Source of the DNA: Minisyncoccota bacterium
GTDB taxonomy: Bacteria; Patescibacteriota; Minisyncoccia; UBA6257; JAGOQP01
NCBI GenBank assembly: GCA_041661795.1
Contig: JBAZTS010000004.1
Location: 6,136-70,135 of the forward strand
Reading direction: 5' to 3'
Length of the DNA: 64,000 bases
Below are positions 2,144-44,064 of the stretch, one piece after another (positions within the stretch are counted from its first letter, which is position 1; each line of letters opens with the position of its first letter). Below the pieces are notes generated by a model that saw nothing but the letters and a program-made list of their open reading frames with translations, was not told where the DNA came from and searched no databases. A program made the position numbers and the translations under genes.

Positions 2144-2338
2144 CTATGACCGGGGGGCGATTTGGGCGATGATGTATAGGAGGGAAACTAAGAAAATCAC
2201 CATTCCCGAGAAGAACAGAACCTCAAGGAACAGTGACCTTACCTGTCCACTCTTGTCGAAGAACGGGTGGAGCACCAAAAGAAATGGTGAGAGGAAGAGG
2301 ATAATTCCCACTATCATGAAAACCTGAGCGGTGTGCAT
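2144..2338 (-). CDS. Small membrane protein (64 aa, two TM segments), first gene of a GC-rich two-gene operon
   Basis: Hydrophobic ORF. The same 'GAGCTCATCGCGGGAGA' upstream motif as the downstream gene. GC-rich. Confidence 0.5.
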   Translation of the reverse strand: MHTAQVFMIVGIILFLSPFLLVLHPFFDKSGQVRSLFLEVLFFSGMVIFLVSLLYIIAQIAPRS

Positions 2339-23654: not shown

Positions 23655-24576
23655 TGCTATCCCGGTTGACTTTTGTATGGTTCCGTAATAGTATAAAGAC
23701 AGCTCGTTTGAACTCAAAACGTGGAGTCCTGGGGGACACGCGACCGAAAACGGCTTGCGCTCCATCGGTGGCGCTATATAAAATAACCGATTCTGTGTCG
23801 TGTGGGCGAGGAAGTACACCTGCACACGACATGCCGCGGAGGTCGTAATCTCCGCTGGTCCGATTGACGGCACGTGTTGCCGTCGAAATAGTGGCTCTAT
23901 GCTACTGGAAGTTGTTACCACTCTTGTGGTAACGGAGGCGGTACCCACTCCGCTCTCCATTCCAAAAGGGGACGCCAAGCGCTCCCCGTAGGCATCGACG
24001 CCAGAAACAGATACATCGGATCGTGTAACACTTGATCAGTTCGCGTGCCCCCAGGCTCCCGTCAACACAGCACCACCCACCCCGCCCTCGAGGGTGGTTT
24101 CTTTTTATATAACTATATAACTTGACAAAATATTTAATGTATGATAACATGTGCACATGTGCAAACTGCAGATCCCGCACAACGACGGGATTGGTGCACG
24201 AGCACAGCATAGGGCGCAGGGATGAAGACCCTGTCTGCCTAAGCTAAGCTGTGCTCTTACCAAAGCAGGACCGCACGGGTCCAAAAAGAGCCCACCCAGA
24301 GTGGACTCAAGGGAACGAAGGCCTTGCCCGTTAGAGCCCAAATCAACTACAAGGGAACAACTCTGATTGACAATCGCTTTCCATCCCAAACCAAGAAGAG
24401 GATAGGCTTGAAGGTTTAATGTCATCTCAAACTCCTCACATTAGTGTTTACACTAATGTGACACAAAGTTTGACGAAGACAACCTCTCTCAAGCCACCTC
24501 AAAAATTTAAAGGTCGGCTACCTTTTCAAATAGCCACTGCACTCCTCGGTCTCTCTATGAGACCACTCGATCCTAA

Positions 24577-24606
24577 GGGACGCCCCGCGCGTCCCTTTCG
24601 CTTTTT
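24577..24606 (+). terminator. Rho-independent terminator (GGGACGC-CCCGC-GCGTCCC + TTTCGCTTTTT) closing the GC-rich non-coding island
   Basis: Perfect 7-bp GC stem followed by a U-run on the plus strand. Confidence 0.7.
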
Positions 24607-24651
24607 ATACAGTTTTGATTTTGTGGAGGCAAAGGAATAGAATTACAATAT

Positions 24652-30139: not shown

Positions 30140-30149
30140 TTAAAATTGT

Positions 30150-31580
30150 ATGTCTGAAATCCAATCTATAATAAAAAACATCCAGAATATAATGCGCCAA
30201 GACGCAGGTGTTGATGGCGATGCCCAACGGCTCTCTCAGCTTGTTTGGATGTTGTTTTTGAAAATATTTGACGATCAGGAAAAAGAGAGGGAACTTATAA
30301 ATCCCAAGTATAAATCTCCGATTCCACAGGATCTTCGTTGGCGTAATTGGGCAAGCAATCCAGAAGGGACAACCGGCGATAAATTGCTTGATTTTGTAAA
30401 TAACACTCTTTTTAAACGTCTCAAAGATTTATCTTTTGACGAAAGCGAAGACCCGCGCGGTTTTATAGTCCGCGAAGTATTTGCCGATAGTTATAACTAT
30501 ATGAAGTCCGGAACGCTTATTCGTCAGGTTATCAATAAAATCAACGAAATTAATTTCAATAAAGCCGACGACCGCCACGCTTTTAACGATTTATACGAAC
30601 ATCTGCTAAAAGAGCTTCAGAGTGCCGGAAATGCGGGGGAATACTACACGCCTCGCCCTCTCACACGTTTCATCGTGGAAATGGTAAATCCTAAACTCGG
30701 CGAATCCGTGTTGGACCCAGCTTGTGGCACGGGGGGATTTTTAATTGATACTATTGAATATATAAGAAAAAATGAGATAAAAAATCAATCAGATGAAAGA
30801 AAATTACAAAACCAGATTCACGGAGTGGAACTTAAACCGTTACCACATTTGCTTGCTATAACCAATATGATTTTACACGGCGTGGATACTCCAAAACATC
30901 TTCGTTGTGGCGATATGCTCTCTCAACCTCTTCGTGAATACGGTCCCAAAGACAGAGTGGATGTAATCGTAGCCAATCCTCCATTTGGTGGAGCGGTAAA
31001 AGACGGAGTGGAAAAAAACTTTCCTGCCGAGTTTCGTACCAAAGAGACCGCTGATTTATTTTTAGTTTTATTTATACATCTCCTTAAACCTAACGGCCGA
31101 GCCGGAATTATTTTACCTGACGGGTCTCTTTTTGGAGAAGGCGTAAAGACTGCTATTAAGAAAAAACTACTTGAAGAATGTAATGTTCACACCATCATCC
31201 GCTTATCCCAAGGAGTTTTTAACCCATATGCCGGAGTAAATACCAATCTTATATTTTTCACCAAAGGCGAACCCACAAAAGAGATTTGGTATTATCAGCT
31301 TCCGCTTCCGGATGGAATGAAACAATACACAAAAAATCGTGGTATAACTCATGAAGAGTTTAATGTTGTCCGCAAATGGTGGGGAAGCCGTAAGTCAAAT
31401 GGAAATTCCTGGAAGGTCTCCATAAAAGAAATTCAGGAAAGAAATTATAATTTAGACTTTAAAAATCCAAACGGCAATGCAAAAACTAACCACAAGGATC
31501 CAAGGGAAGTTTTAGGGGAGATTAAGGAGAAAGAAAAAGAAATAACCAAAATACTGGGAGAAATTGATAGACAAATATAA
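30150..31580 (+). CDS. hsdM: Type I restriction-modification N6-adenine methyltransferase subunit
   Basis: HsdM N-domain; SAM motif 'DPACGTGGFL'; 'NPPFG' catalytic motif. Confidence 0.9.
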   Translation: MSEIQSIIKNIQNIMRQDAGVDGDAQRLSQLVWMLFLKIFDDQEKERELINPKYKSPIPQDLRWRNWASNPEGTTGDKLLDFVNNTLFKRLKDLSFDESEDPRGFIVREVFADSYNYMKSGTLIRQVINKINEINFNKADDRHAFNDLYEHLLKELQSAGNAGEYYTPRPLTRFIVEMVNPKLGESVLDPACGTGGFLIDTIEYIRKNEIKNQSDERKLQNQIHGVELKPLPHLLAITNMILHGVDTPKHLRCGDMLSQPLREYGPKDRVDVIVANPPFGGAVKDGVEKNFPAEFRTKETADLFLVLFIHLLKPNGRAGIILPDGSLFGEGVKTAIKKKLLEECNVHTIIRLSQGVFNPYAGVNTNLIFFTKGEPTKEIWYYQLPLPDGMKQYTKNRGITHEEFNVVRKWWGSRKSNGNSWKVSIKEIQERNYNLDFKNPNGNAKTNHKDPREVLGEIKEKEKEITKILGEIDRQI

Positions 31581-31866
31581 CAGTCGCCATAAGGAGGCTG
31601 TTTTTTTGACAAGTCCGATTCTCTTGATTATACTTATTGGTAGTGTGAGTATGCGTCAACCATATGGAAGATTTAGAAAAAGGCAAAGTTTCTTAAGTCT
31701 TCTGTTTTATTGGCTTATTCTAAGGGTCTTTCAGATAATATCTAAATCTTCTAAATCATAACCAGAATATAGTTGACATAGGTTAACGCTTGATATATAC
31801 TGAAAACGTCGCAAATACACCACTTTTGTATCTTAGTAAGTAGCTTTGTTATAATTAATCAACAAT

Positions 31867-32229
31867 ATGAAAAATTCAAAAAAAGGTAGAGTCATTCAAG
31901 TTGTTCAGGAAATTCAGGTTCTTTTAGAAGAACTAAAGAAACTTTTTTCCATTAATGATGTGCGAGTCAAAGGTTCTTTAGGAAAAGGTCAAATTACTAA
32001 TTATTCCGGGGCCTCAGGAGGAATAAGAATGCTTTTAGATGACAATTATTTTAAAGAGACTAGATCTCTTTCGGAAGTTACCATGAGATTAAAACAAGAA
32101 GGGTTTAATTATTCGAAAAATACTGTTTCGATGGCTTTATTGAGGGCTGTTCAGGCCAGATTCCTTGTAAGACTCCCAGCAGAGGGACATAAAGGCCGAG
32201 AAAGATGGGTATATGTAATTAGAAAATAA
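31867..32229 (+). CDS. Small winged-helix protein, paralog 1 of 4 in a tandem array
   Basis: Shares the pattern 'SG.SGG.R.L...NFFK..R...[DE]V......Y.......V.MAL.R.......V......KGR.[WY].Y' with ORFs 32236 and 32797. A TTGACA/TATATA promoter lies at about 31776-31810. Confidence 0.5.
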   Translation: MKNSKKGRVIQVVQEIQVLLEELKKLFSINDVRVKGSLGKGQITNYSGASGGIRMLLDDNYFKETRSLSEVTMRLKQEGFNYSKNTVSMALLRAVQARFLVRLPAEGHKGRERWVYVIRK

Positions 32230-32235
32230 CTAGCT

Positions 32236-32568
32236 ATGAAAAATCAACAAGACTACGATTTGGTTATTAAAAGGTTAAATCGCCTTGAAAAATATGTCTT
32301 CAGAAATAAAGACGAGCAGACATTAGAAGACAAAAAAGACAGAAAATCAGATTTTTCTGGCCCAACAGGAGGATTACGATTTTTAGTTTTGCGTAATTTT
32401 TTTAAAACCAAGAGGAAATTTTCAGATATTAGAGCTGAACTCGAGAAAAATAGTTATCATTATAGTCCCCAAGCTGTAGACATGGGGCTTAAAAGGTTAT
32501 CAAAATTAAAAGGTCCTCTCGTTGCATTAAAACAAAAAGGGAAAAAATTTTATGGCGAAAGAAAGTAA
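32236..32568 (+). CDS. Small winged-helix protein, paralog 2
   Basis: Paralogous to 31867 and 32797. Confidence 0.5.
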   Translation: MKNQQDYDLVIKRLNRLEKYVFRNKDEQTLEDKKDRKSDFSGPTGGLRFLVLRNFFKTKRKFSDIRAELEKNSYHYSPQAVDMGLKRLSKLKGPLVALKQKGKKFYGERK

Positions 32569-32785
32569 TCTGAGAAAGAAAAAACAAAATACCAGTGTTG
32601 CTGAGAGACTTATAAAAGTTATTAATAAGCAACCAAGGACCGCAGAAGAATTCAGAAAAGAAATCAAAGACAAGCTTGGTCATAACGAAAAACCGGAAGA
32701 CATTAGGGTAAATTTACTTTATCTCTTAAGAAGGGAAAAGATTAAGCGGAAGAAAGAAGGCAGCGTTTATAAATATTATATTTAA
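32552..32785 (+). CDS. Small basic winged-helix-like protein, paralog 3 (shorter)
   Basis: Basic, with an HTH/wing-like C-terminus (RVNLLYLLRREKIKRKKEGSVYKYYI). It overlaps the previous gene's end. Confidence 0.4.
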   Translation: MAKESNLRKKKQNTSVAERLIKVINKQPRTAEEFRKEIKDKLGHNEKPEDIRVNLLYLLRREKIKRKKEGSVYKYYI

Positions 32786-32796
32786 TTTTTAAATCT

Positions 32797-33126
32797 ATGA
32801 GTCATAAAGAAATTAAACAAATATTCAAACGACTTGAAAGGATAGAGAAAAGAATTTTTAGCAAAAGCATTGCACCTAACCAGAACAAGAAAGAATTAAA
32901 AACTAACGGTAATACCAGTTTATCAAGCTTAATTTTAAAGCTTCGTAATAGTGGTTTTTTTAAGCAACCGCAAAGTGCAAACGATGTTTATAAAAAACTT
33001 TCGCCGACTTATTCTTGCAAAATTAATAGAGTCAACATGGCGTTGAAAAGATTAAGAGAGAGGAAAAAGTTAAGAATAGCAGATAAGATTATTAAAGGGA
33101 GAAAAATTTTAACTTATGTCTGGTAA
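32797..33126 (+). CDS. Small winged-helix protein, paralog 4
   Basis: Paralogous to 31867 and 32236. Confidence 0.5.
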   Translation: MSHKEIKQIFKRLERIEKRIFSKSIAPNQNKKELKTNGNTSLSSLILKLRNSGFFKQPQSANDVYKKLSPTYSCKINRVNMALKRLRERKKLRIADKIIKGRKILTYVW

Positions 33127-33898
33127 ACCATTAACTAGCGAAACTAAAATAAGGTCAATTCTCGAACAAAAATTCGAGAAAGTTCATATTGGTGCAATTT
33201 TAAAACATTTTATTGCCGCAAAGAAAAAATATCAAGAAAGCGACTGGGAAAGTTCAATTTTTAAATCCAGTAAGTTTGTAGAAGCCACAACAAAAGCACT
33301 TATGAGGTTTTGCGGAAAAGCTCTACCAAAAATAAGAGATTTTCATGCTGGTAATTTTTTGCGCAAATTAGAACAAGAATCTGTTACTATTGACGACACT
33401 GTCAGGATCGTAATTCCTAAGGGTTGTCTTTTCATTTATGAAATAGCGAGCAACCGTGGGGCTCGCCACGATTCTGATGGAATAGATCCGAATGAAATTG
33501 ATGCGGGCGCTACTAATATAATTATCTCTTGGGTTCTTGGTGAATTAGTCAGGTTTGCAAGCAAGAGGGACAAAAACCCAGAAGAGGCACGCGATTTAGT
33601 AGATGCAATTACAGGCAAAACCTATCCATTTTTTGAGGAAATCGAGGACAGACTTTATATAAATATTAATGGACTGAGTGCTGAAAAAATAGCTACTCTT
33701 ATTCTTTACGGTCGCTATCCTCGTAGAACAAGTAAAGATTTTTTGTGTGAATTAGTTGAGAGACATGGATTTTCCGCGAAAAATGCAAAAATGGCATTTA
33801 AACGTACAAAATACTTATGTGATATTAATAAAAAAGGATTGAAATTAAGAGGTTTGGGTAGGCAGAAAGCAGAGAAAATCTTGGATCAGAGTAGATGA
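33116..33898 (+). CDS. Hypothetical protein embedded in the hsd locus (candidate defence/Abi-like; function unknown)
   Basis: 260-aa soluble protein with no confident domain match. Contains 'NRGARHDSDG'. It lies between hsdM and hsdS. Confidence 0.4.
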   Translation: MSGKPLTSETKIRSILEQKFEKVHIGAILKHFIAAKKKYQESDWESSIFKSSKFVEATTKALMRFCGKALPKIRDFHAGNFLRKLEQESVTIDDTVRIVIPKGCLFIYEIASNRGARHDSDGIDPNEIDAGATNIIISWVLGELVRFASKRDKNPEEARDLVDAITGKTYPFFEEIEDRLYININGLSAEKIATLILYGRYPRRTSKDFLCELVERHGFSAKNAKMAFKRTKYLCDINKKGLKLRGLGRQKAEKILDQSR

Positions 33899-33941
33899 TT
33901 TATGAAAACTAACTGGCTAATAAAAAGATAGTAGGAATATA

Positions 33942-34415
33942 ATGCACAAAACAGAAAAACTAGGAAAAATCTCAAGTATTTCACCCAAACAGATGGTCAG
34001 CGTTTTTTTGAACAATTCTCCCGTACATGCAAAAACAATAATAGAAAAACACTATATCGGGTTATGGATAAAAGCTTCAGGAATTATAGAAAGCGTAGAT
34101 TTAATGTTGGACTATGTTACGTTCAATTTTCATAATAAGGATGGCACCTATTTGTCCACAAACTTTTTTAAACCTGTCGATAGCGAAACTTCCCAACTAA
34201 AAGTTAAAGATCAAATAAGTTTAATTGGAAAAGTATTTAATGTTGGAGATGGTATTGTGGTTTTAGACAATTGTGTGTTAACAACCAAAGACGAAATAAA
34301 CGATTCAATTAATAAAGAATCCAATTCAAACTGGTGGGAGAAAACTTGGGTGCAAATCATAATGCTTTTAGGTGCGATAGCGGGAATTATAGGACTTTAT
34401 TCTTTATTTAGATGA
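33942..34415 (+). CDS. Hypothetical protein with a C-terminal TM anchor, embedded in the hsd locus
   Basis: 157 aa with a C-terminal hydrophobic helix. The stop overlaps the hsdS start. Confidence 0.4.
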   Translation: MHKTEKLGKISSISPKQMVSVFLNNSPVHAKTIIEKHYIGLWIKASGIIESVDLMLDYVTFNFHNKDGTYLSTNFFKPVDSETSQLKVKDQISLIGKVFNVGDGIVVLDNCVLTTKDEINDSINKESNSNWWEKTWVQIIMLLGAIAGIIGLYSLFR

Positions 34416-35557
34416 AAACTTATCAAACAAAAAAACTCGGAGAGGCGTTGGATTACGAACAACCTGGAGAATATATTGTGAACTCTAAGGATTACAGCGA
34501 CAACTATAAAATTCCGGTTTTGACAGCCGGCAAAACTTTTATTTTGGGTAATACAAATGAGAAAGAAAATATTTTCCCGATTGATAAATTACCGGTGATC
34601 ATTTTTGATGATTTTACCACTGCTATAAAATTTGTTGATTTTCCCTTTAAGGTAAAATCTTCAGCAATGAAGATTTTACATGCTAAGAAAAATGTAGCAG
34701 ATATTAAATATTTGTTTTATTTGATGCAAACCATAGAAATCAATCACGCAACACATAAACGATATTGGATATCAGAATATTCTCAAATAAAAATCTCCCT
34801 TCCGCCTCTCGCTGAACAAAAAAAGATTGTTGCTAAGTTAGAAAAAGTATTGGGTAAAATTAAAGAAGCTAAAAAATTACGCTCCGAGGCAGAAGAGACC
34901 ACTAAAAACCTTATTCCCGCCGAACTACACAAAATTTTTGAAGAGGGCAAAAAGAAAGGTTGGGAAGAAAAAAAACTTGGAGATGAAACTATTTTAAAAA
35001 TGACGAGCGGAGGAACGCCAAGTCGATCAAATATAGATTTTTATAATGGTGGTATTCTTTGGCTAAAGTCGGGGGAACTTGAAAACAATGTGGATATTAT
35101 AGATTCAGAAGAAAAAATCTCTGAAGATGCGATAAAAAAAAGTAGTGCAAAAGTTTTTCCGAAAGGAACAGTTTTGTTTGCCATGTATGGCGCAACGGCT
35201 GGTAAATTAGGAATACTCGGTATTGATGCAAGTACTAACCAAGCAGTTGCCGGAATGATTCCTGTCGCAGAAAAGCTGAATAATAAATTTCTCTACTATT
35301 TTTTACTTAAGCAACGCGAGGAAATTATTTCTCAAGCATGGGGAGGGGCACAGCCAAATTTAAGCCAAGCAATTATAAAAGAATTTAAAATTTCACTCCC
35401 ATCTCTCCCCGAGCAAAAAAAGATTGTTGTGCGGTTGGATTTGCTATCTGAAAAAATCAAAAAACTACAAGATTACCAAAAATCCACTAAATCTGACATG
35501 GCATCGCTTGAACAATCAATTCTATCATCCGCCTTCTCCGGCAAATTAGATAAATAA
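34412..35557 (+). CDS. hsdS: Type I restriction-modification specificity subunit
   Basis: Two target-recognition domains, each followed by the conserved 'SLP(P/S)L.EQKKIV..L' coiled-coil repeat. Confidence 0.88.
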   Translation: MKTYQTKKLGEALDYEQPGEYIVNSKDYSDNYKIPVLTAGKTFILGNTNEKENIFPIDKLPVIIFDDFTTAIKFVDFPFKVKSSAMKILHAKKNVADIKYLFYLMQTIEINHATHKRYWISEYSQIKISLPPLAEQKKIVAKLEKVLGKIKEAKKLRSEAEETTKNLIPAELHKIFEEGKKKGWEEKKLGDETILKMTSGGTPSRSNIDFYNGGILWLKSGELENNVDIIDSEEKISEDAIKKSSAKVFPKGTVLFAMYGATAGKLGILGIDASTNQAVAGMIPVAEKLNNKFLYYFLLKQREEIISQAWGGAQPNLSQAIIKEFKISLPSLPEQKKIVVRLDLLSEKIKKLQDYQKSTKSDMASLEQSILSSAFSGKLDK

Positions 35558-36137: not shown

Positions 36138-36863
36138 ATGGATAATCCGAAAATCTTAATTGGAACTCCTACTTATTCGGGAAAGTTTTATTGTCTCTCA
36201 GAATGGGTAGAAAATATAAAGAAGATTAACTATCCCAATTTTGACGTTCTTTTGGTTGATAACTCCAAAGATGATGAATATAAAAAGAGGATTGAATCTT
36301 TGGGAATAAATTGTGTTAAATCCCCGCATTATGAGGGAAATCCAGTAAAAAGTTTATGTGAAGCAAGAAAGGTGTTTTTTGATAAAGCTCTTGAGGGTGG
36401 GTACGATTATGCCTTTAGTATAGAACAGGATCTTTTCCCGCCAGCAGATATTATACAAAAACTTCTTAAGTCCGATAAAAAAATTATCGGAACTACCTAT
36501 CTAGTTGGTCAACTTATGGATGAAAAAATAAGGAGAAAAAAAGATTGGCTGACATCATTTGCCGATTTGGAGAAAGAAATAATATTACCTGATGGCAATA
36601 AGGCCATGTATTGGATGACTCTTTCGGAAATAAAAAATAGAGGAGTGTTTCGGGTCAAGAGTTGTGCTTTTGGATGCACGCTTATTGCTCGCGATGTATT
36701 AGAAAAAATAAAACCAAGAGTGATTGAAGGATTAAGAAGATTTGATGATTACTATTTTTTTGAAGATTGTTTTAAAGAGGGCATAGAGGTTTATGGAGAT
36801 TCAGATATTTTAGTAGACCATTATCCTAGTTTAGGCGGGGGAAGTGGCTGGATTACACTTTGA
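36138..36863 (+). CDS. Glycosyltransferase family 2-like protein
   Basis: 'LIGTPTY...DVLLVDNSKDD' Rossmann-like GT-A N-terminus. Confidence 0.5.
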   Translation: MDNPKILIGTPTYSGKFYCLSEWVENIKKINYPNFDVLLVDNSKDDEYKKRIESLGINCVKSPHYEGNPVKSLCEARKVFFDKALEGGYDYAFSIEQDLFPPADIIQKLLKSDKKIIGTTYLVGQLMDEKIRRKKDWLTSFADLEKEIILPDGNKAMYWMTLSEIKNRGVFRVKSCAFGCTLIARDVLEKIKPRVIEGLRRFDDYYFFEDCFKEGIEVYGDSDILVDHYPSLGGGSGWITL

Positions 36864-36881
36864 TTTCTTTCTATAAAATGA

Positions 36882-36917
36882 GCACGGCTCGGATGTTTCC
36901 ATCCGAGCCGGTAGTGC
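36882..36917. terminator. Hairpin GCACGGCTCGGA-TGTTTCCA-TCCGAGCCGGT, left boundary of the GC-rich/cassette island (a related copy at 42498..42527)
   Basis: Read directly; it follows the minus-strand GC-rich ORF 36944..37372. Confidence 0.6.
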
Positions 36918-36943
36918 TTTAGGCGTGTGCTTGTTGCGGGGAG

Positions 36944-37372
36944 CTAGAGTTCGTGAGCCCAGGGGGCCCAGATGATCATGGTGGCGTCGTCGATCGTCGG
37001 TTGCTCGTCTGGCGGTCTGGGGGGGATCGCGACGACGACGTTGCCCTCCCTGATGCCCAGTTCGGTAGCGGTTGAATCGAGTTCGGTTCTCAACGACGTC
37101 CAGAAAAAGTCGTTGAGAGTCCGAAACTGACGCCGGTTCCGCTGGATTTTGATGTATGACCGCCTGAAGAAGGAGGCACCACCAAGCGATGCGGTTTCCG
37201 CCGTCAAGCTTTCGATTTCGGCGACGATGAAGCTCATGACCCTCAGGATGGTGGCGAGGTAATCGGGGATTTTACCGATCACCTTCTCACCCTCCTTGAC
37301 GGGGGGAAGCCCGTCGCTCGCCGGGGTTTGTCCGGCCTTTTCCACTAACTCGTCTAACCATGGAATCTGCAT
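36944..37372 (-). CDS. Hypothetical GC-rich protein (142 aa)
   Basis: AAGGAG ribosome-binding site upstream of the ATG. Composition unlike the host backbone. Terminator hairpin downstream. Confidence 0.5.
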   Translation of the reverse strand: MQIPWLDELVEKAGQTPASDGLPPVKEGEKVIGKIPDYLATILRVMSFIVAEIESLTAETASLGGASFFRRSYIKIQRNRRQFRTLNDFFWTSLRTELDSTATELGIREGNVVVAIPPRPPDEQPTIDDATMIIWAPWAHEL

Positions 37373-37441
37373 CGTCCGCTCCTTTCAAAAGTATTTATGT
37401 ATTAACAGAAATTGAAGAAGTTGTCAATAAGATATAACCCA

Positions 37442-37472
37442 GTGTTTTTTGTTTTGGTGTAGGTGATATAAT
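37442..37472 (+). promoter_or_regulatory. Conserved promoter GTGTTTTTTGTTTTGGTGTAGGTGATATAAT (copy 1 of 3), extended -10 TGnTATAAT, ending 6 nt before the ATG
   Basis: Identical or near-identical copies at 39371..39401 and 40558..40588, each 6-8 nt upstream of a start codon (leaderless-type). Confidence 0.65.
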
Positions 37473-37478
37473 AAAAAC

Positions 37479-37712
37479 ATGAGAAAGGAGCCAAAAAAAC
37501 AAAACATTGTCATCTATCAAACTAAAACCGGAGCAATTGAGCTTCGCGGTGATTATTGCAAAAAAACTATTTGGGCAAATCGTATGCAGATGGCCAAGAT
37601 ATTTGGTGTAAATCCTCAAGCAATTTCTAAACATATTCAAAATATCTATCAAGAAAAAGAGTTACAAAGAAAACCAACTAGTTCCATTTTAGAACTAATT
37701 CAAAATGGATAA
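37479..37712 (+). CDS. RhuM/Fic-associated N-terminal DNA-binding-domain-like protein (77 aa, probably a fragment)
   Basis: 'IVIYQTKTGAIELRGDYCKKTIWANRMQMAKIFGVNPQAISKHIQNIY' resembles the N-terminus of RhuM-family proteins. Confidence 0.5.
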   Translation: MRKEPKKQNIVIYQTKTGAIELRGDYCKKTIWANRMQMAKIFGVNPQAISKHIQNIYQEKELQRKPTSSILELIQNG

Positions 37713-37913
37713 TAGTTAATGTAATTATAGATAATCGTTAAACTTTGCCTATCTTTATTTTATATTTACATACATAGATTTTAGATATATCTGAGGGAGT
37801 ATGTGCAAATTTTGCACACAGTATAATACTGTAACTAATTCTTATACCTATCCAACCCACCTACACCAAAAATATGCTTAAGGACCAAATGGCCGAAACG
37901 ATTATCACCAAAT

Positions 37914-37947
37914 AACATCCTTACAAACTCCAGTTTGTAAGGATGTT
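37914..37947. repeat. Perfect palindrome AACATCCTTACAAACTCCAGTTTGTAAGGATGTT (cassette-boundary hairpin)
   Basis: Read directly. It shares the CAAACTCCAGTTTG core with hairpins at 38961 and 39328. Confidence 0.75.
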
Positions 37948-38090
37948 ATTTTACGGCCCAACTTCCCAGTAGTAATCTTTGCTTTACCGCTTGGGAATTG
38001 GGACAGGTAGATTCTTATTATATTTTGACTTCTAAATTGACTAAGTGGTTAAATTGTGTTATCCAATAAGTAGAACTCAAGGAGGAAAGT

Positions 38091-38303
38091 ATGAAGATGG
38101 AGAAGATGACCGATCGGAAACTGGGGCGGAAGGCGATGAAAATTCGCCTGATCGCCGAGACCGAGGAGGAGATGTCACTCCTCACCGAGATCACCTCTCA
38201 GTTGTTAGGAAGGTGGCCGGTTCTAGGAGACAAACTGAAGGATGAGAAGGTTTTCCAGCTTGACGTCACTCTCCGCAAGATGTGGTCAGCTGTTCTCGGC
38301 TGA
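38091..38303 (+). CDS. Hypothetical small GC-rich protein (70 aa), first gene of a three-gene GC-rich module
   Basis: AGGAGGA ribosome-binding site. A TTGACTTCT -35-like element upstream, similar to the other GC-rich modules. Confidence 0.45.
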   Translation: MKMEKMTDRKLGRKAMKIRLIAETEEEMSLLTEITSQLLGRWPVLGDKLKDEKVFQLDVTLRKMWSAVLG

Positions 38304-38350
38304 CGCGAAGCGCTTGCTTAACTTGCTGTATGAACTGAAAGGAGACAGAG

Positions 38351-38617
38351 ATGTGCGGACCACAGTTGGGAATCCCGCTCAACGACCAGACCCTCGCTGA
38401 GATGTCCCAGGAGGAGAGGAACTTCTGGCTGGACTTCCTGGAAGAGGCCTCTGATGTCATCGAGAAAATGGCGGATGAAGAGGCCACTCAGCCATTCACT
38501 CCGCCGGCCTCGCTTCTGTCCAAGTACAACATGGCGGTGGCACGCTATGATGGGCGTGCTTACTGCCAGATCCTCCAACTGGAGGAGATCTTCAACTTCC
38601 ACCAGACCCAGACCTAA
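38351..38617 (+). CDS. Hypothetical small acidic GC-rich protein (88 aa)
   Basis: AAGGAG ribosome-binding site 7 nt upstream. Confidence 0.45.
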   Translation: MCGPQLGIPLNDQTLAEMSQEERNFWLDFLEEASDVIEKMADEEATQPFTPPASLLSKYNMAVARYDGRAYCQILQLEEIFNFHQTQT

Positions 38618-38628
38618 CAAGGAAGGAG

Positions 38629-38826
38629 ATGCCGATGTTTTCAAACAAGAAGTGTCCGAAGTGCGAGAAGTCGTACACGATCCTAGCGACCACGATCTAC
38701 AACGTCCAGTGGTGCTTCTCCCACGGAGAAGCACCCGTCTTCCTGGACAGGACGCTCTGTTGTGGAGCACCTGTCGGGAACTTTCGGGGAGGAGACCCCT
38801 CTTCGACGCTGGTGACCAGCACCTGA
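38629..38826 (+). CDS. Small Cys-rich protein (CPKC...YNVQW...RTLCCGAP), paralog of 42236..42424
   Basis: Clear amino-acid similarity to ORF 42236 (KKCPKCEKSYTILATTIYNVQWCFSHGEAPVFLDRTLCCGAPV vs KEKCPKCGQTCGMAITVYNIQWVRENGERPVYLSRTLCCGSPM). Ribosome-binding site present. Confidence 0.6.
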   Translation: MPMFSNKKCPKCEKSYTILATTIYNVQWCFSHGEAPVFLDRTLCCGAPVGNFRGGDPSSTLVTST

Positions 38827-38960
38827 TCAACTCTCCAACTACTTAAGTACAACCAGGGCAGTTTCACTGCCTCGACCGCCGCGGCCAACCCCCGCGGCGG
38901 ATCTTTTTTATAAAGAAATATAATTTTGATTTTCATCGCTAATCTTGGCCTATCTTTTCC

Positions 38961-39000
38961 ACATAACATATCAACAAACTGGAGTTTGTTGATATGTTAT
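38961..39000. repeat. Perfect palindrome CATAACATATCAACAAACTGGAGTTTGTTGATATGTTATG (cassette-boundary hairpin)
   Basis: Read directly. Same stem as 39328..39365, with the loop inverted. Confidence 0.75.
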
Positions 39001-39026
39001 GTGTGGGGATGTATAATATACAGAAT

Positions 39027-39311
39027 ATGGAAAAGCTAAAAACCGCCGAACAAATGGAGAGGCATCTTAAAGGAATGGCCAATCATTACCGGATTGAAAT
39101 TTTACTTCTTTTAGATTCCAGCGACGGCATAACTCTTGACGCTATTATAAAAGCAATGGATGCTGACCCAAGAACAATAGGGGAACACGCTAGACGTCTC
39201 TACAATGCCGGCTTGGTTGATAAAAAATATAGGGGCAGATTTATGGAGTATAAACTCTCTCCCTATGGGAAAAAATTTGTTTCTTTTTTAAAATCTTTTC
39301 AGCGTGTCTAA
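39027..39311 (+). CDS. ArsR/SmtB-family winged-helix transcriptional regulator
   Basis: 'MANHYRIEILLLLDSSDGITLDAIIKAM' HTH_20 pattern. Start chosen at the internal Met after the hairpin. Confidence 0.6.
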   Translation: MEKLKTAEQMERHLKGMANHYRIEILLLLDSSDGITLDAIIKAMDADPRTIGEHARRLYNAGLVDKKYRGRFMEYKLSPYGKKFVSFLKSFQRV

Positions 39312-39327
39312 TTTAAATTCTTTAATT

Positions 39328-39365
39328 ACAACATATCAACAAACTCCAGTTTGTTGATATGTTGT
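39328..39365. repeat. Perfect palindrome ACAACATATCAACAAACTCCAGTTTGTTGATATGTTGT
   Basis: Read directly. Confidence 0.75.
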
Positions 39366-39370
39366 TTTGG

Positions 39371-39401
39371 GTGTTTTTTGTTTTGGTGTAAGTGATATAA
39401 T
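39371..39401 (+). promoter_or_regulatory. Conserved promoter GTGTTTTTTGTTTTGGTGTAAGTGATATAAT (copy 2)
   Basis: One-nt variant of the 37442 and 40558 copies; it ends 8 nt before the GNAT ATG. Confidence 0.65.
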
Positions 39402-39409
39402 TAGTTTAA

Positions 39410-39871
39410 ATGAAAATAAAAATTAGGAAAGCAAAATTAGAGGAGCTAAAAAAGATTGTTAATGTAACCAGTAAAGCATTTGACGATCCGTTTGATCCTA
39501 AGGGCTACATAAGGAAAGACAAAGAGTATTATAAAGATTTAGTAGCGCCGTTTAAAGATAAAAAATTTGGTATTTTTGTTGCGGTCTATAACGATAAAAT
39601 AATAGGAGTTCAGCGATTTGAATTTATAAAAAACAATATAAATCTATTTCGGCTTGGTGTGTTAAAGTCATTTAGAAACAAAGGCGTGGCTCCGGCTTTG
39701 ATAAAAAGAACCGAATCCGAAGGTAAAAAGAAAAACTGCAAGAAGATAACTCTGATGTGTATTGAAGAAAAGGGATTGACTCCTTACTATAAAAAAATTG
39801 GTTTTAGGGTGGATAAGATAAAGAAGCATCGAGATCATCACGATGTTTTTATGTCTAAGTCCATAAACTAA
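39410..39871 (+). CDS. GNAT-family N-acetyltransferase
   Basis: 'IGVQRFEF...FRLGVLKSFRNKGVAPALIKR' acetyl-CoA-binding motif A (R/Q-x-x-G-x-G/A). Confidence 0.7.
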   Translation: MKIKIRKAKLEELKKIVNVTSKAFDDPFDPKGYIRKDKEYYKDLVAPFKDKKFGIFVAVYNDKIIGVQRFEFIKNNINLFRLGVLKSFRNKGVAPALIKRTESEGKKKNCKKITLMCIEEKGLTPYYKKIGFRVDKIKKHRDHHDVFMSKSIN

Positions 39872-39895
39872 TCTGCCTTCTCCTAAAAAGTTTTT

Positions 39896-40038
39896 GAGTG
39901 TTTTTTGGTTTAAGTTGACTTCTGTGATTTATGTGATATAACTATGGCAGAATTGTAGTCAATCGAAGTTTTGCACCAAACTGTCTGTGAACAGAAGGGG
40001 CGGTGTAAAACACTGCTCTTTCACAAGAAAAGGAGAAA
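39896..40038 (+). promoter_or_regulatory. Promoter (TTGACT ... TGTGATATAAC) plus conserved roughly 100-nt 5' leader of GC-rich module 1; homologous to 41903..42033
   Basis: About 75-80% identity to the leader at 41903-42033, including 'AATCGAAGTT(T/C)TGCAC' and 'CTGCTCTTTCACAAGAAAAGG(A/G)GA'. Alternative pairings GTGAACAG/CTGCTCTTTCAC and GAAAGAGC/GCTCTTTC preserve a hairpin. Confidence 0.55.
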
Positions 40039-40411
40039 TATGTCTCAGGCAAAGTGTAGTTCTTGCCAACGCGTTTTCGAACCGTCTGTCTCGTTCGACT
40101 TCTACCCGAAGCCGACTCCGAAGGATCCAGACGCCGGTTTGTGCGAGAGCTGTCTCATGAGAGGGATCTTCCAGGAGACGGCGCGCGACCCGGTCCCGGT
40201 TCCCAACGGACACGAGACGAGCGTCTGCAAGAAGGGACAGGGAGAACTGACCTGTAGCTTTTTGGGTCTCTCTTCCAGGGACGGGCACCTCGTCTACGAG
40301 TGCCTGAAGGGAAGCTCCTTGGAATCGGCCATCAGAGGGCGGCTTCGGGAGGGCTCCATGAAGTCCAAGGGGGACAACTGCTCCGGACCCCCCGACTTCC
40401 GGGCCAACTGA
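40039..40411 (+). CDS. Cys-rich protein (124 aa), apparently a fusion of domains homologous to ORFs 42034 and 42236
   Basis: The N-terminus 'CSSCQRV..YP..P.DPDAGLCESC' resembles 42034 'CDVCCYRR..YPVDP...C'. The C-terminus 'CKKGQGELTCSF..' resembles 42236 'CPKCGQTCGM'. Ribosome-binding site AAGGAG. Confidence 0.5.
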
Positions 40412-40557
40412 CCATCTCTCTCACAAAGCACAACCAGGCAGAACAAAACTGCCACTTGACCGCCACGGCTCACCCCGTGGCGTTCTGCTTTTGTAAAAAT
40501 ATTTTTTGGTTTCTCTTATTTTCTAATTCGTACGAATAGGTAAATAGAAAAATTGGG

Positions 40558-40588
40558 GTGTTTTTTGTTTTGGTGTAGGTGATATAAT
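40558..40588 (+). promoter_or_regulatory. Conserved promoter GTGTTTTTTGTTTTGGTGTAGGTGATATAAT (copy 3)
   Basis: Identical to 37442..37472; it ends 6 nt before the NYN-gene ATG. Confidence 0.65.
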
Positions 40589-40594
40589 ATAAAT

Positions 40595-41095
40595 ATGAGA
40601 ATAGAAGGAAATAATTGTGCCTATATTGATGGAGCTAACTTGCACAATGGTGTTGCCAGCTTAGGTTGGAATCTTGATTATAAAAAATTTAGAGTATGGT
40701 TATCGGAAAAATATTCAATAAAAAACGCCTATATTTTTATAGGACTCATTTCTAAGTACAAAGAACTTTATAAATATTTACAGGAGTGCGGATTTACTCT
40801 TATTTTTAAAGAGGTGATTTATGATGGAAACGGTAAGCCAAAAGGAAATTGTGACGCTGATTTAGTTTTACAATCTACTCGCGATGCTTATGAAAACAAA
40901 TTTGATAGATCAATTATTGTTACAAGCGATGGAGATTACGCTGGATTAGTAAAATTTCTTCAAGAAAAACAAAAGTTATTAGTCATTCTATCTCCCAACA
41001 ATCAGGAAAGGTGCTCGATTCTTCTTAAAAGAACTGGCGTCAAAATAGCTTACATAAATGACCAGCGTTCTATATTGGGGACTTCTGTAAAATAA
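40595..41095 (+). CDS. NYN-domain (LabA-like) putative ribonuclease
   Basis: 'AYIDGANL...D.ADL.L..........SDGDYAGLVKFL' NYN/DUF88 pattern. Confidence 0.65.
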   Translation: MRIEGNNCAYIDGANLHNGVASLGWNLDYKKFRVWLSEKYSIKNAYIFIGLISKYKELYKYLQECGFTLIFKEVIYDGNGKPKGNCDADLVLQSTRDAYENKFDRSIIVTSDGDYAGLVKFLQEKQKLLVILSPNNQERCSILLKRTGVKIAYINDQRSILGTSVK

Positions 41096-41292
41096 AAAAG
41101 CCCCCAACGAAGACAGAACTTCGCAAGGGTCTTTTTCGTAGTGATGTTATATATATATCACACTTGTACAATAAAATCAATCTTCTGTGGATAACTTAAA
41201 AACCAACCTTATTCTTTAAAAAACGCTGTTATATCTTTGACGATATCTTTGGTTGATTATATAATGAACGTAATACTATTAAATAAAATAAA

Positions 41293-41841
41293 ATGGATCC
41301 AGAAAATAATGTAGAAAATATTGTTTCGTCGGTTGGCGGTAAGAAAAAATTAATAATTATTGGAGTTATTGTTCTGGCGGTTATTGTTGTTGGGTATTTG
41401 ATTAATGGTTTTGTCGGCAGAACTGCGGGAGATAAATTGGCCGAAAACATTCTTGAAAATCAACTTGGAGGAAATGTGGATATAGATTCAAGTGACGGTT
41501 CCGTTTCTATAGTAACAGACCAGGGAACTTTTACTTCCGGAGATTCAGCCAAGTGGCCATCGGATATGCCAAGCGATGTTCCAAAATTTACCAAAGGCAA
41601 AATAACGGTAGCCGGGTCTTCTCTGACGGGAGGCACTGGCTGGCAAGTGATGTATGAAGGCGTTAATAAGGGAGATTTTGACGCTTATCACAACACTCTT
41701 AAATCCGCGGGATGGACTGACATCGGAACATTTAGCGCTGATATAAATATTATTCAGATGAGTAAGGGTGAAAATAGTTTGATGATGGCTATTGACGCTC
41801 AAAGCAAAGCATTCACTCTGACGGTTTATACTGGAGAATAA
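41293..41841 (+). CDS. Hypothetical membrane-anchored protein
   Basis: N-terminal TM helix. A strong terminator follows (41851-41882 AAAACAGGGCTCTTGGAGCCCTGTTTTTTTT). Confidence 0.45.
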   Translation: MDPENNVENIVSSVGGKKKLIIIGVIVLAVIVVGYLINGFVGRTAGDKLAENILENQLGGNVDIDSSDGSVSIVTDQGTFTSGDSAKWPSDMPSDVPKFTKGKITVAGSSLTGGTGWQVMYEGVNKGDFDAYHNTLKSAGWTDIGTFSADINIIQMSKGENSLMMAIDAQSKAFTLTVYTGE

Positions 41842-41902
41842 TTTATTGTCTCAAAACAGGGCTCTTGGAGCCCTGTTTTTTTTACATAAAAATGTTTGTT
41901 GT

Positions 41903-42033
41903 TATTTTGACATCTGTGACTTATGTGGTACAACTTGAGCAAGATTGTAATCAATCGAAGTTCTGCACTAAACGCTGTTTATCGAAAGAGCGGTGCGGGA
42001 CTTGCTCTTTCACAAGAAAAGGGAGGAAAGAAA
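41903..42033 (+). promoter_or_regulatory. Promoter (TTGACA ... TGGTACAAC) plus conserved 5' leader of GC-rich module 2
   Basis: Homologous to 39896..40038. Confidence 0.55.
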
Positions 42034-42219
42034 ATGCTTCCAGCATGTGACGTGTGTTGTTACCGAAGAGATATCTGGCGTATTTACCCCGTTGATCCTC
42101 GGAAACAAAAGTTGTCTCACAATCGCTATGCCTGCGATCTTCACAAGAGCGAAGTGATCTCGCGGGTGAAGTCCAGTACTGCGTGGCCCAACTTCGAGGT
42201 GATCGTCGAGAAGATCTGA
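42034..42219 (+). CDS. Small Cys-rich zinc-ribbon-like protein (61 aa)
   Basis: GGGAGG ribosome-binding site; 'CDVCC...C..H' pattern. Homologous to the N-terminal half of 40039..40411. Confidence 0.5.
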   Translation: MLPACDVCCYRRDIWRIYPVDPRKQKLSHNRYACDLHKSEVISRVKSSTAWPNFEVIVEKI

Positions 42220-42235
42220 AGGAAAGGAGAAACAA

Positions 42236-42424
42236 ATGCCGAAGAAGGAGAAGTGTCCCAAGTGCGGGCAAACGTGTGGGATGGCCATCACGGTCTATAA
42301 CATCCAATGGGTGCGTGAGAACGGGGAGCGTCCGGTGTATCTTTCCCGGACGCTCTGCTGCGGCTCACCGATGAGGGGATTCTGGGGAGAGAATTTCCCC
42401 CTGGTGCCGGGATCCAGCCCCTAG
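42236..42424 (+). CDS. Small Cys-rich protein (CPKC...YNIQW...RTLCCGSP), paralog of 38629..38826
   Basis: AAGGAG ribosome-binding site; paralogy as above. Confidence 0.6.
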   Translation: MPKKEKCPKCGQTCGMAITVYNIQWVRENGERPVYLSRTLCCGSPMRGFWGENFPLVPGSSP

Positions 42425-42497
42425 TTCTTTCGCTGTCGTACATTACCGGTCAGGCATCTCGCCTGACCGGTTTCGCTTCAAAAACTCACCCAAAATA

Positions 42498-42527
42498 AAG
42501 CACGGCTCGGAAAATCCGAGCCGGTGA
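42498..42527. terminator. Hairpin GCACGGCTCGGA-AAA-TCCGAGCCGGTG, right boundary of the GC-rich modules (a related copy at 36882..36917)
   Basis: Read directly. Confidence 0.6.
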
Positions 42528-42626
42528 TATTGTTGATGTGTTAATGTGGTTTGTGAGTTGTGCTTTCTATGTTACAATCAATGTCCCGGTCGAGTGATTA
42601 TTTCTAATTTTGTTTAAAAATATTTT

Positions 42627-42821
42627 ATGAAAACAATTTCATGTAAAGATATGGGAGTAGAGTGTGATTTTTCCGCTCAGGCCGAAACAGCCGAAGAAGC
42701 AGTAAAGTCCTTAAAAGAACATGCTGCTCAAGTTCACGCCGATAAGGTTGCCGAAATGTCGGCCACTATGTCAGACGAACAAATGACAAGCGAGATGATG
42801 TCCAAAGTTAAGGATATGTAA
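42627..42821 (+). CDS. DUF1059-family small protein
   Basis: 'MKTISCKDMGVECDF' matches the DUF1059 N-terminal signature. A terminator follows at 42828-42865. Confidence 0.6.
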   Translation: MKTISCKDMGVECDFSAQAETAEEAVKSLKEHAAQVHADKVAEMSATMSDEQMTSEMMSKVKDM

Positions 42822-42888
42822 TTTCAAAAACCGTCCCGATTTGTCGGGGCGGTTTTTTGTTTGGATTGGAATATTGTAAGATGTATCT

Positions 42889-43221
42889 ATGAATAACAAT
42901 CTTACTCAAAAAAAGTGTCTGCCTTGCGAGGGAGGAGTCCCTCCTCTGGATAAAACCCAAATGGAAGAGCTTATTAAAGAAACCCCCGGCTGGGAGATCA
43001 CAGAAGAAGGGAAAAAAATAAAGAGAGAGTTTAAATTCAAGGATTTTAAAGAAACGATAGTATTTGTAAACAAAGTGGCAGAGTTGGCAGAAAGTGAAGG
43101 GCATCATCCTGATATCCATATTTTTTACAGCCGTTTGGAACTGGAATTATGGACGCATATGATTGGAGGACTCTCGGAAAACGATTTTATTTTGGCAGCC
43201 AAGATTAACGCTTTGCTATAA
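42889..43221 (+). CDS. phhB: Pterin-4a-carbinolamine dehydratase (PCD/DCoH)
   Basis: 'E.GHHPD' active-site motif and overall PCD pattern (WEI.EEG..I.REFKFKDF). Confidence 0.8.
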   Translation: MNNNLTQKKCLPCEGGVPPLDKTQMEELIKETPGWEITEEGKKIKREFKFKDFKETIVFVNKVAELAESEGHHPDIHIFYSRLELELWTHMIGGLSENDFILAAKINALL

Positions 43222-43282
43222 ATTATTTTTTGATATAATTAAATCAGTTCGCTAAATCTTCTGCGAACCAAAAGGAGGCAGT

Positions 43283-43426
43283 ATGCCAGTTTGGTGTAAT
43301 AAGCACAACAAGGAGGTGAAGAAGAAGGACAGGGCGCGATGCTACAGGTTGGGGTGCTCGTGGCTGTCGTTCATCTTGCGACGAAAGAGCAGGAGAATCA
43401 GTCGGAGTAGCAGAAGGTAAGCACAT
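43283..43426 (+). CDS. Small Arg/Lys-rich GC-rich ORF (47 aa), tentative
   Basis: AAGGAGG ribosome-binding site 6 nt upstream; GC-rich. A hairpin terminator (AGGCCTGCGT-TTGGGG-ACGCAGGCCT) follows at about 43460-43490. Confidence 0.3.
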
Positions 43427-43549
43427 CTCGTCTCGCGGGTAACACCGTCGGGACGTCAGTAAGGCCTGCGTTTGGGGACGCAGGCCTTGTAAAATATACA
43501 CTTGCGTGAGCGAGTGATTTTTGTTATAATATAAATAAGGAGGTGTGAG

Positions 43550-43756
43550 ATGGATCAGGTGCTGGTTTCTTTATTGGCCGTAACGGTCATCGGTCTTCTT
43601 GCGGCTATCTGTTACGTCGTCTCTCTATTTATTAAGGGGAGATCAGACAAGAACAAAAAAATCAACAAAGAAATTACTGACTCCCTCTGCAAGTGGTCCC
43701 ACCAGGATATCGGAAAGCCGCCCGATGATCTCTGGAGTAAGCCGCCGGGAAAATGA
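43550..43756 (+). CDS. Small membrane protein (68 aa)
   Basis: GGAGG ribosome-binding site; one TM helix. A terminator follows at 43790-43832 (CGTCCGCGGGA...TCCCGCGGACG TTTTCGTTT). Confidence 0.45.
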   Translation: MDQVLVSLLAVTVIGLLAAICYVVSLFIKGRSDKNKKINKEITDSLCKWSHQDIGKPPDDLWSKPPGK

Positions 43757-43860
43757 GGTACACCATAATACTACGCACACGTTCGCTATACCGTCCGCGG
43801 GAGCAATTGGGCTTCCCGCGGACGTTTTCGTTTAAGAAAAGATTGATATATAATTTATCC

Positions 43861-44064
43861 ATGGAAATCATCGGAGGAATTGGAGTTTTAATAATCGCTC
43901 TGGCTATTTGGATAAAAAAAGAAGGAGTCCAAGATATTTTATTTATTATCGGTGGAGCGTTTCTTTTGGCATACAGTGTTTATTTAAACAACATCATTTT
44001 TATAGTTCTTCAGTGTATTTTTATCATCTCGTCTTTTCTGGAAATTGTTTCAAAAAAGAAATAA
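43861..44064 (+). CDS. Small membrane protein (67 aa, two TM)
   Basis: Hydrophobic ORF starting at the internal Met MEIIGG. Confidence 0.4.
   Translation: MEIIGGIGVLIIALAIWIKKEGVQDILFIIGGAFLLAYSVYLNNIIFIVLQCIFIISSFLEIVSKKK

Follow-up and report, generated by a model that had tools for sequence, protein, structure and literature searches.

To judge from sequence comparison, the small cysteine-rich open reading frames described here are genuine protein genes of three unrelated families, and not, as a sequence-only reading of the same DNA had proposed, members of one new family with fused and split forms. The three are a two-domain protein of 123 residues, the paralogous pair CPKC...RTLCCG and the ORF that starts at position 42034. 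All positions refer to the window, that is the whole stretch of 64 kb that was analysed (Table 1). The explanation that best covers the findings jointly, and in which we place slightly better than even confidence, is that three unrelated small-protein families are carried in self-contained, GC3-rich cassettes with a shared regulatory leader, that their products are putative zinc-stabilised binding modules and that their import was fairly recent. The proteins appear to be new, small and zinc-finger-like, and small Cys4 proteins as such are a common kind. Unannotated small proteins are abundant in CPR/Patescibacteria genomes.

Table 1. Features of the window discussed in the text
Feature	Position	Strand	Remarks
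Small predicted membrane-protein ORFs	1810-2091 and 2144-2338	-	93 and 64 aa; in a further GC-rich island
Type I restriction-modification locus	27779-35557		Directly upstream of the cassette array; N6-methylase/HsdM at 30150, HsdS at 34412
GC-rich 142-aa ORF	36944-37372	-	Terminator hairpin at 36885-36910
Promoter-like 31-nt repeat GTGTTTTTTGTTTTGGTGTAGGTGATATAAT	37442-37472, 39371-39401, 40558-40588	+	Three copies, at most 1 mismatch
Three related perfect palindromes	37910-37951, 38960-39003, 39328-39365		Arms of 18-21 bp, 2-nt loop, core CAAACTNNAGTTTG
Orphan ORFs co-transcribed with CPKC paralogue A	38091-38303 and 38351-38617	+	70 aa, pI 9.5, and 88 aa, pI 4.2; GC3-rich
CPKC paralogue A	38635-38826	+	63 aa from ATG 38635 (65 aa from 38629); last gene of a three-ORF GC-rich operon
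Intrinsic terminator, cassette 2	38876-38900	+	
Promoter and leader, cassette 3	39915-40039	+	TTGACT 39915-39920, 16 nt, TG-n-TATAAC 39934-39942; leader of ~90 nt, 39950-40039
Two-domain protein	40040-40411	+	123 aa; N domain residues 1-47, C-terminal Cys4 domain ~55-120
Intrinsic terminator, cassette 3	40461-40482	+	
Paralogous promoter and leader, cassette 4	41907-42033	+	78% identical to the cassette-3 leader core
Cys/His-containing orphan ORF	42034-42219	+	61 aa; first gene of cassette 4; supported by its ribosome-binding site and a GC3 of 0.61 only
CPKC paralogue B	42236-42424	+	62 aa; second gene of cassette 4
Terminator-like hairpin after cassette 4	42445-42471	+	
GC3-rich mini-cassette ORFs	43283-43420 and 43550-43756	+	Own ribosome-binding sites and terminators; both orphans

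The cassette array and its surroundings

The window has a GC content of 37.6% and belongs, by exact protein matches (NCBI MFA6136317.1 and others), to a MAG of Candidatus Paceibacterota (CPR). Within about 36.8-43.9 kb it contains six short GC-rich islands (47-62% GC) with one to three small ORFs each, and between these islands lie host-like AT-rich genes for a MarR/ArsR-like regulator, a GNAT protein, an NYN protein encoded inside the cassette array, a DUF1059 protein and a pterin-4a-carbinolamine dehydratase (PCD). The nine GC-rich ORFs have GC3 values of 0.57-0.77 as compared with 0.25-0.41 in the surrounding genes. It is the called frame that carries this excess, with GC3 exceeding both GC1 and GC2; the overall GC content of the Cys-rich ORFs amounts to 0.47-0.60. 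Every GC-rich ORF is preceded by an AAGGAG/GGAGG ribosome-binding site located 6-9 nt ahead of its ATG, in full agreement with the earlier description of GC-rich genes with good ribosome-binding sites. A cassette, as the term is used here, is a self-contained unit that consists of a sigma-70-type promoter, a strong ribosome-binding site and a terminator in addition to its genes.

Besides the genes just named, the Pfam-scanned neighbours comprise a weak GT2 match, a bactofilin gene and the type I restriction-modification genes, and a CsoR-like repressor is also encoded near the cassettes. Several small uncharacterised ORFs are situated between hsdM and hsdS, one of which (33116-33898) shows a weak HEPN-domain match below the Pfam cutoff. 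The GNAT gene, which separates cassettes 2 and 3, has a composition like that of the host and its own repeated promoter. Each copy of the GTGTTTTTTGTTTTGGTGTAGGTGATATAAT repeat is found directly 5' of an AT-rich gene, encoding a 77-aa ORF, the GNAT protein and the NYN protein, respectively, and these genes alternate with the GC-rich cassettes.

Searches of the nine GC-rich ORFs against Pfam, PHROGs, NCBIfam and PADLOC returned nothing significant, and the PADLOC anti-phage defence profiles matched none of them at E values up to 1. The previous statement that no matching family could be recognised thus stands for these four collections as well as for the PDB. In their organisation the units resemble phage moron-type cassettes, which likewise have their own promoter, a strong ribosome-binding site, a terminator and a composition unlike that of the host, and relatives of the 123-aa protein that consist of its C-terminal domain only do occur on viral contigs. 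Unlike phage morons, however, the cassettes are not accompanied by a recognised prophage backbone among the scanned neighbours, and the two-domain relatives reside mostly among housekeeping genes. Integron gene cassettes differ in that they are promoterless ORFs separated by attC sites and adjacent to an intI integrase, whereas each unit of the window has its own promoter and terminator; no integrase is present among the neighbouring ORFs scanned with Pfam.

Some further elements deserve mention. The middle one of the three related palindromes overlaps the -35 box of the MarR/ArsR-like gene (38994-39311), and T-runs follow the other two; the palindromes may serve as operators or terminators or represent a small repeat element. 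A near copy of the terminator hairpin of the 142-aa ORF is located at 42503-42523 on the minus strand, 3' of cassette 4, at a place where no gene of that strand ends; it may be what is left of another cassette, or a terminator that acts in both directions. One of the two mini-cassette ORFs encodes a very basic (pI 11.7), Cys-containing protein of 45 aa and the other a 68-aa protein with an N-terminal transmembrane helix. Since the same leader, GAGCTCATCGCGGGAGAAA, precedes both small predicted membrane-protein ORFs near the beginning of the window, the pattern of GC-rich small-gene cassettes recurs elsewhere in the genome. Finally, two tandem GC-rich units on the plus strand (23667-24105 and 24122-24610) are devoid of a convincing ORF. 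A TTGAC/-10 promoter is present in either unit, as is a terminator made up of a GC hairpin and a T-run; the z-scores of their RNA folds amount to -7.7 and -10.0, and Rfam does not provide a match to either of them even at E values up to 1. With about 410-460 nt each, these units are candidates for novel large structured ncRNAs.

Families of the small cysteine-rich proteins

The two CPKC proteins were correctly recognised as paralogues in the sequence-only reading. They are 50% identical over 52 aa (BLASTP, E=1e-18) and have the motifs CPKC, YN(V/I)QW and RTLCCG(A/S)P in common. For the first copy, ATG 38635 is the likelier start because the ribosome-binding site abuts ATG 38629; the resulting protein of 63 aa is identical with the JGI gene call P0001. 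Both copies end a small operon, paralogue A following the ORFs at 38091 and 38351 and paralogue B following the 42034 ORF. The claim that their DNA differs at synonymous positions also proved correct: a codon alignment reveals different codons at 15 of the 27 identical residues, with dN=0.37 and dS=1.93 (NG86; dN/dS ~0.19). These values argue for a coding pair under purifying selection whose similarity is maintained at the protein level, a constraint that rests on a single pairwise comparison because the family has two members only, both of them in the window.

Each CPKC protein has four conserved cysteines (CxxC ... CC) arranged around a predicted beta-hairpin. The AlphaFold2 model is poor (pLDDT 60), and a structural neighbour was not found for it. 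A word-indexed search of 5.8e9 clusters did not yield any homologue, nor did scans of GTDB species genomes and IMG/VR, and a full HMMER search of 1.84e9 representatives retrieved nothing except the protein of the window itself and two repetitive artefacts. CPKC...RTLCCG is a lineage-restricted pair of paralogues. Homologues were likewise not found for the partner ORFs 38091, 38351 and 42034, and viral scans with the ORFs 36944, 42034 and 38351 remained empty.

The 42034 ORF ends 16 nt upstream of paralogue B, so the previous observation that it immediately precedes 42236 holds. The exact ORF is absent from the protein collection and has apparently not been called with this start; it could be spurious.

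The third protein is of a different kind. The earlier reading had placed a 124-aa ORF at 40039; the ORF itself is real, its start being 40040 and its length 123 aa, as position 40039 is out of frame. A single-sequence search identified 51 homologues with E values down to 6e-36, and a profile search extended this set to at least 343 proteins (E of 1e-3 or better), which we refer to as the GDNCSGPPDF family. Its members lack Pfam domains, and every one of them is annotated as hypothetical. Where a source is named, it is Wolfebacteria, Parcubacteria or Patescibacteria, and the latter two account for most of the family. According to the family alignment, the N domain follows the motif TCxxCxxxFxPSxxFDFYPxxxDPxxGxCExC and the C domain has the invariant residues C63, C72, C88, K90 and G111-D-N-C-S-G-P-P-D-F120. 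The 40040-40411 ORF carries all invariant residues and is thus a member of the family. A comparison with the homologue from Candidatus Wolfebacteria GWA1_42_9 gave dN=0.35 and dS=1.63.

The N domain with its CxxC...CxxC arrangement is zinc-finger-like (treble-clef-like) and weakly resembles the ClpX zinc-binding domain. The closest known counterparts are the N-terminal zinc-binding domain of ClpX (PDB 2ds5) and other treble-clef/zinc-ribbon modules, for example the CsfB/Gin anti-sigma factor (5n7y). A structural match for the C-terminal Cys4 domain was not found. The best hit in a profile search of PDB sequences had an E value of 0.19, and Foldseek against BFVD returned nothing at an E of 0.001 or better. 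Residues 2-40 of the 123-aa protein show a weak HMM match (E 0.034) to Lar-like restriction alleviation proteins (phrog_5558), small zinc-ribbon proteins of phages and prophages, and the cassette array does adjoin a type I restriction-modification system. Membership in the Lar group was rejected, as just 5 of 44 family members match (best E 0.018), the match covers nothing beyond the generic CxxC region, and Pfam does not report it at all. A search of the literature for the motif or for Cys-rich small proteins in Patescibacteria found nothing.

Fused, C-only and permuted forms exist, but only within the GDNCSGPPDF family, whose core is the Cys4 domain of roughly 70 aa. An HMM search of the fetched loci counted 34 N-C copies and 62 C-only copies, and in none of these loci does an N-only gene stand beside a C-only gene. 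Among metagenome homologues, the domain order is reversed in P0035 (C, then N), and P0052 has, in place of the N domain, a Cys/His-rich module of another kind, CxxC...GWFxWPFNFDPxW. P0041 and P0043 are extended at the C terminus by unrelated sequences. The fusion partners in P0041, P0043, P0011 and P0052 do not contain any Pfam domain.

The sequence-only reading had assigned both small-ORF domains to the 123-aa chain and had concluded from this fission/fusion pattern that the two domains work together. Such a single two-domain family, split as 42034 plus 42236 (and 38629), fused in the 123-aa ORF and with cooperating small proteins, would agree with the adjacency and probable co-transcription of 42034 and 42236, with the homology of cassettes 3 and 4 up to the start codon and with the pattern CxxC ... 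YP..DP ... Cxx(C/H) that is present both in the 42034 ORF and in the N domain. However, BLASTP did not produce any alignment between the 123-aa and the 42034 protein, and the alignments with the CPKC proteins have E values of 0.24-0.26 over 13-14 residues. When hhalign was applied with profiles of the two domains built from 30 and 48 homologues, the proposed correspondences reached probabilities of 0.2% (42034 ORF with the N domain) and 0.5% (CPKC pair with the C domain). A weak match of the CPKC pair to the N domain, with a probability of 17%, speaks for the one-family model but is confined to 15 columns around the first CxxC. Furthermore, the family HMMs miss the 42034 and CPKC ORFs, the spacings of the motifs differ, and the small ORFs lack FxPS, FDFY, GxCExC and GDNCSGPPDF, which are invariant in the family. 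We accordingly rejected the C-terminal half of the 123-aa ORF as a member of the CPKC family and the 42034 ORF as a stand-alone N domain; no further N or C domain was detected by HMMs when the window was translated in all six frames. On the DNA level, cassettes 3 and 4 exhibit about 80% identity through promoter and 5' UTR, which collapses directly after the start codon. What they share is a promoter and a leader, not protein domains. The one-family model is already largely refuted, and we regard it as very unlikely.

The leader shared by cassettes 3 and 4

The common promoter has the form TTGAC(T/A), 16 nt, TG-n-TA(T/C)AAC, and both leaders contain an exact 20-mer, TGCTCTTTCACAAGAAAAGG, immediately ahead of the ribosome-binding site. 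In Candidatus Wolfebacteria GWA1_42_9 (locus L003, 780-905) the homologue of the 123-aa protein is preceded by this leader as well. Between the window and the Wolfebacteria locus the leader core is 79% identical as compared with 63.5% for the coding sequence, in which the synonymous sites are saturated. The leader is therefore under a constraint of its own.

Two helices can be drawn. P1 consists of 9 bp formed by GUUYUGCAC with GUGYRRRAC and includes one double compensatory change, and P2 is an 11-bp hairpin whose 3' strand contains CUCUUU, which is complementary to the Shine-Dalgarno sequence. Both are 100% paired in all three copies of the leader, and they overlap and are mutually exclusive; with three copies from two genomes, the covariation in P1 and P2 is not statistically meaningful. 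A leader shared in this way would co-regulate cassettes 3 and 4, probably at translation initiation, and the alternative formation of P1 or P2 would expose or free the anti-Shine-Dalgarno stretch CUCUUU.

The leader resembles translational RNA switches and thermometers (fourU/ROSE-like elements, expression platforms of riboswitches) in its two exclusive conserved helices and in the CUCUUU stretch. It differs from them in that it matches no Rfam family, is known from three copies only and has no aptamer-like conserved core that could be found. A covariance model applied to the window and 83 fetched loci (84 sources in total) retrieved just the three known leaders and duplicates thereof. A leader 18-mer had 38 matches in GTDB genomes, which is about the chance expectation and of which only that in Wolfebacteria is real; in IMG/VR the 18-mer and a 3' pattern gave chance matches only. 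With Rfam 15, the region 36800-43900 did not score at the gathering threshold or at E values up to 1, and chance hairpin matches were obtained elsewhere.

Origin and possible roles of the cassettes

Are the small ORFs proteins at all, and if so, are they peptides to be processed? GC-rich islands of AT-rich genomes are often structured RNAs, long spurious ORFs arise on both strands of GC-rich DNA, the window contains the two ORF-free units with strongly negative fold z-scores, and cassette 2 itself has a z-score of about -4.6 (-4.59). That the islands as a whole are structured non-coding RNAs and their ORFs artefacts is nevertheless extremely improbable: dN/dS is ~0.2 for both genes that can be tested, 343 proteins make up the family of the 123-aa protein, the periodicity of GC3 follows the called frames with their canonical ribosome-binding sites, the fold z-scores of cassettes 3 and 4 are only -2.1 to -2.75 and all three cassettes fall well short of the -7.7 and -10.0 of the ORF-free units, and Rfam offers no match. 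For the 42034 ORF alone, a structured RNA is unlikely but deserves more consideration. Precursors of RiPPs, suggested among other options in the sequence-only reading, or small secreted toxins matured by neighbouring enzymes would be compatible with small Cys-rich peptides with variable C-terminal tails and with a GNAT gene between cassettes 2 and 3. Inspection of the neighbours by Pfam did not bring to light a radical SAM enzyme, a YcaO protein, a lanthipeptide synthetase, a peptidase or an ABC exporter, and RiPP precursors are unlikely because a maturation enzyme is missing among these neighbours. In addition, the GNAT gene is host-like in composition and is served by a repeated promoter of its own, the ORFs have neither a signal peptide nor a leader-core organisation, and conservation spans the whole folded core. 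Peptides of this sort can hardly be what the cassettes encode.

A different matter is whether the genes were imported or belong to the native equipment of the host. In the latter case they would be housekeeping or stress genes for small putative zinc-binding proteins, serving in metal buffering or as adaptors of chaperones or proteases, and the leader would be a sensor of temperature or metal. The two-domain homologues are indeed single chromosomal genes among core genes: mostly they stand alone, surrounded by housekeeping genes (for instance grpE-dnaK, pth, rpsA and genes of ribosomal proteins). One lies between grpE-dnaK-dnaJ, from which it is divergent, and the rpsI-rplM-rplQ-rpoA cluster, and others are found between pth and signal peptidase/hisS and after rpsA. 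The likeness of the N domain to the ClpX zinc-binding domain, the MarR/ArsR-like regulator, the DUF1059 gene and the CsoR-like repressor nearby, and the anti-Shine-Dalgarno-like CUCUUU in the leader hairpin point in the same direction. On the other hand, if the genes were old and native, it would be difficult to account for a GC3 of 0.75 where the host has values near 0.3; CPKC proteins turned up in none of the other genomes that were searched, and an operator for a metal regulator was not identified. Native genes of this kind are a doubtful explanation.

On the favoured reading of imported cassettes, the excess in GC3 would mark a fairly recent horizontal acquisition from a donor with a GC content of about 55-60%. 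The family gene has a GC3 far above that of its flanking genes in 5 of 19 low-GC hosts including the window, an example being the Wolfebacteria locus (0.76 versus 0.45 in flanking genes), and the GC3 of most family members matches that of the host. As the excess is restricted to these 5 of 19 hosts, we read it as a sign of recurrent, fairly recent transfer between genomes that differ in GC content, rather than as something inherent in the family. The AT-rich leader resembles the host and fits poorly with import from a GC-rich donor.

The proteins themselves would be non-enzymatic, putatively zinc-stabilised modules that dock onto a protein or nucleic-acid partner. A conserved neighbour did not emerge from 49 family loci, and each homologue has its own TTGAC...TATAAT promoter; a 142-aa ORF that neighbours a family member at locus L128 is unrelated to the window ORF 36944. 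C-only members are encoded on three IMG/VR contigs, in one case immediately upstream of genes for SSB and a recombinase, in another within a cluster of small Cys-rich and HNH genes, and the third contig (L124) also encodes many small ORFs. Together with the adjacent restriction-modification and NYN genes, these phage contexts suggest that the proteins are related to conflict, be it defence, anti-defence or DNA transactions, and a role in phage-host or DNA-transaction conflict is a weakly supported possibility. The housekeeping contexts of most two-domain homologues and the lack of a conserved neighbour are better reconciled with a cellular role in the host than with conflict. A more far-reaching proposal has the leader as a new class of cis-regulatory RNA switch in Paceibacterota/Wolfebacteria that serves unrelated acquired zinc-binding mini-proteins, and GDNCSGPPDF as a new zinc fold that targets a conserved component of DNA transaction or defence; we consider this combination improbable. 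If it were true, the GDNCSGPPDF zinc fold would be used by CPR bacteria and phages alike.

The present analysis delimits one sizeable unannotated protein family with at least 343 members, the C-terminal Cys4 domain of which has no match in Pfam or the PDB. It sets apart a strictly lineage-specific pair of paralogues and corrects the tempting inference of fusion and fission. The shared leader is a concrete and testable regulatory element, and the presence of GC3-rich small-gene cassettes beside a restriction-modification system in the AT-rich genome of an episymbiont suggests that gene import into this genome is ongoing.
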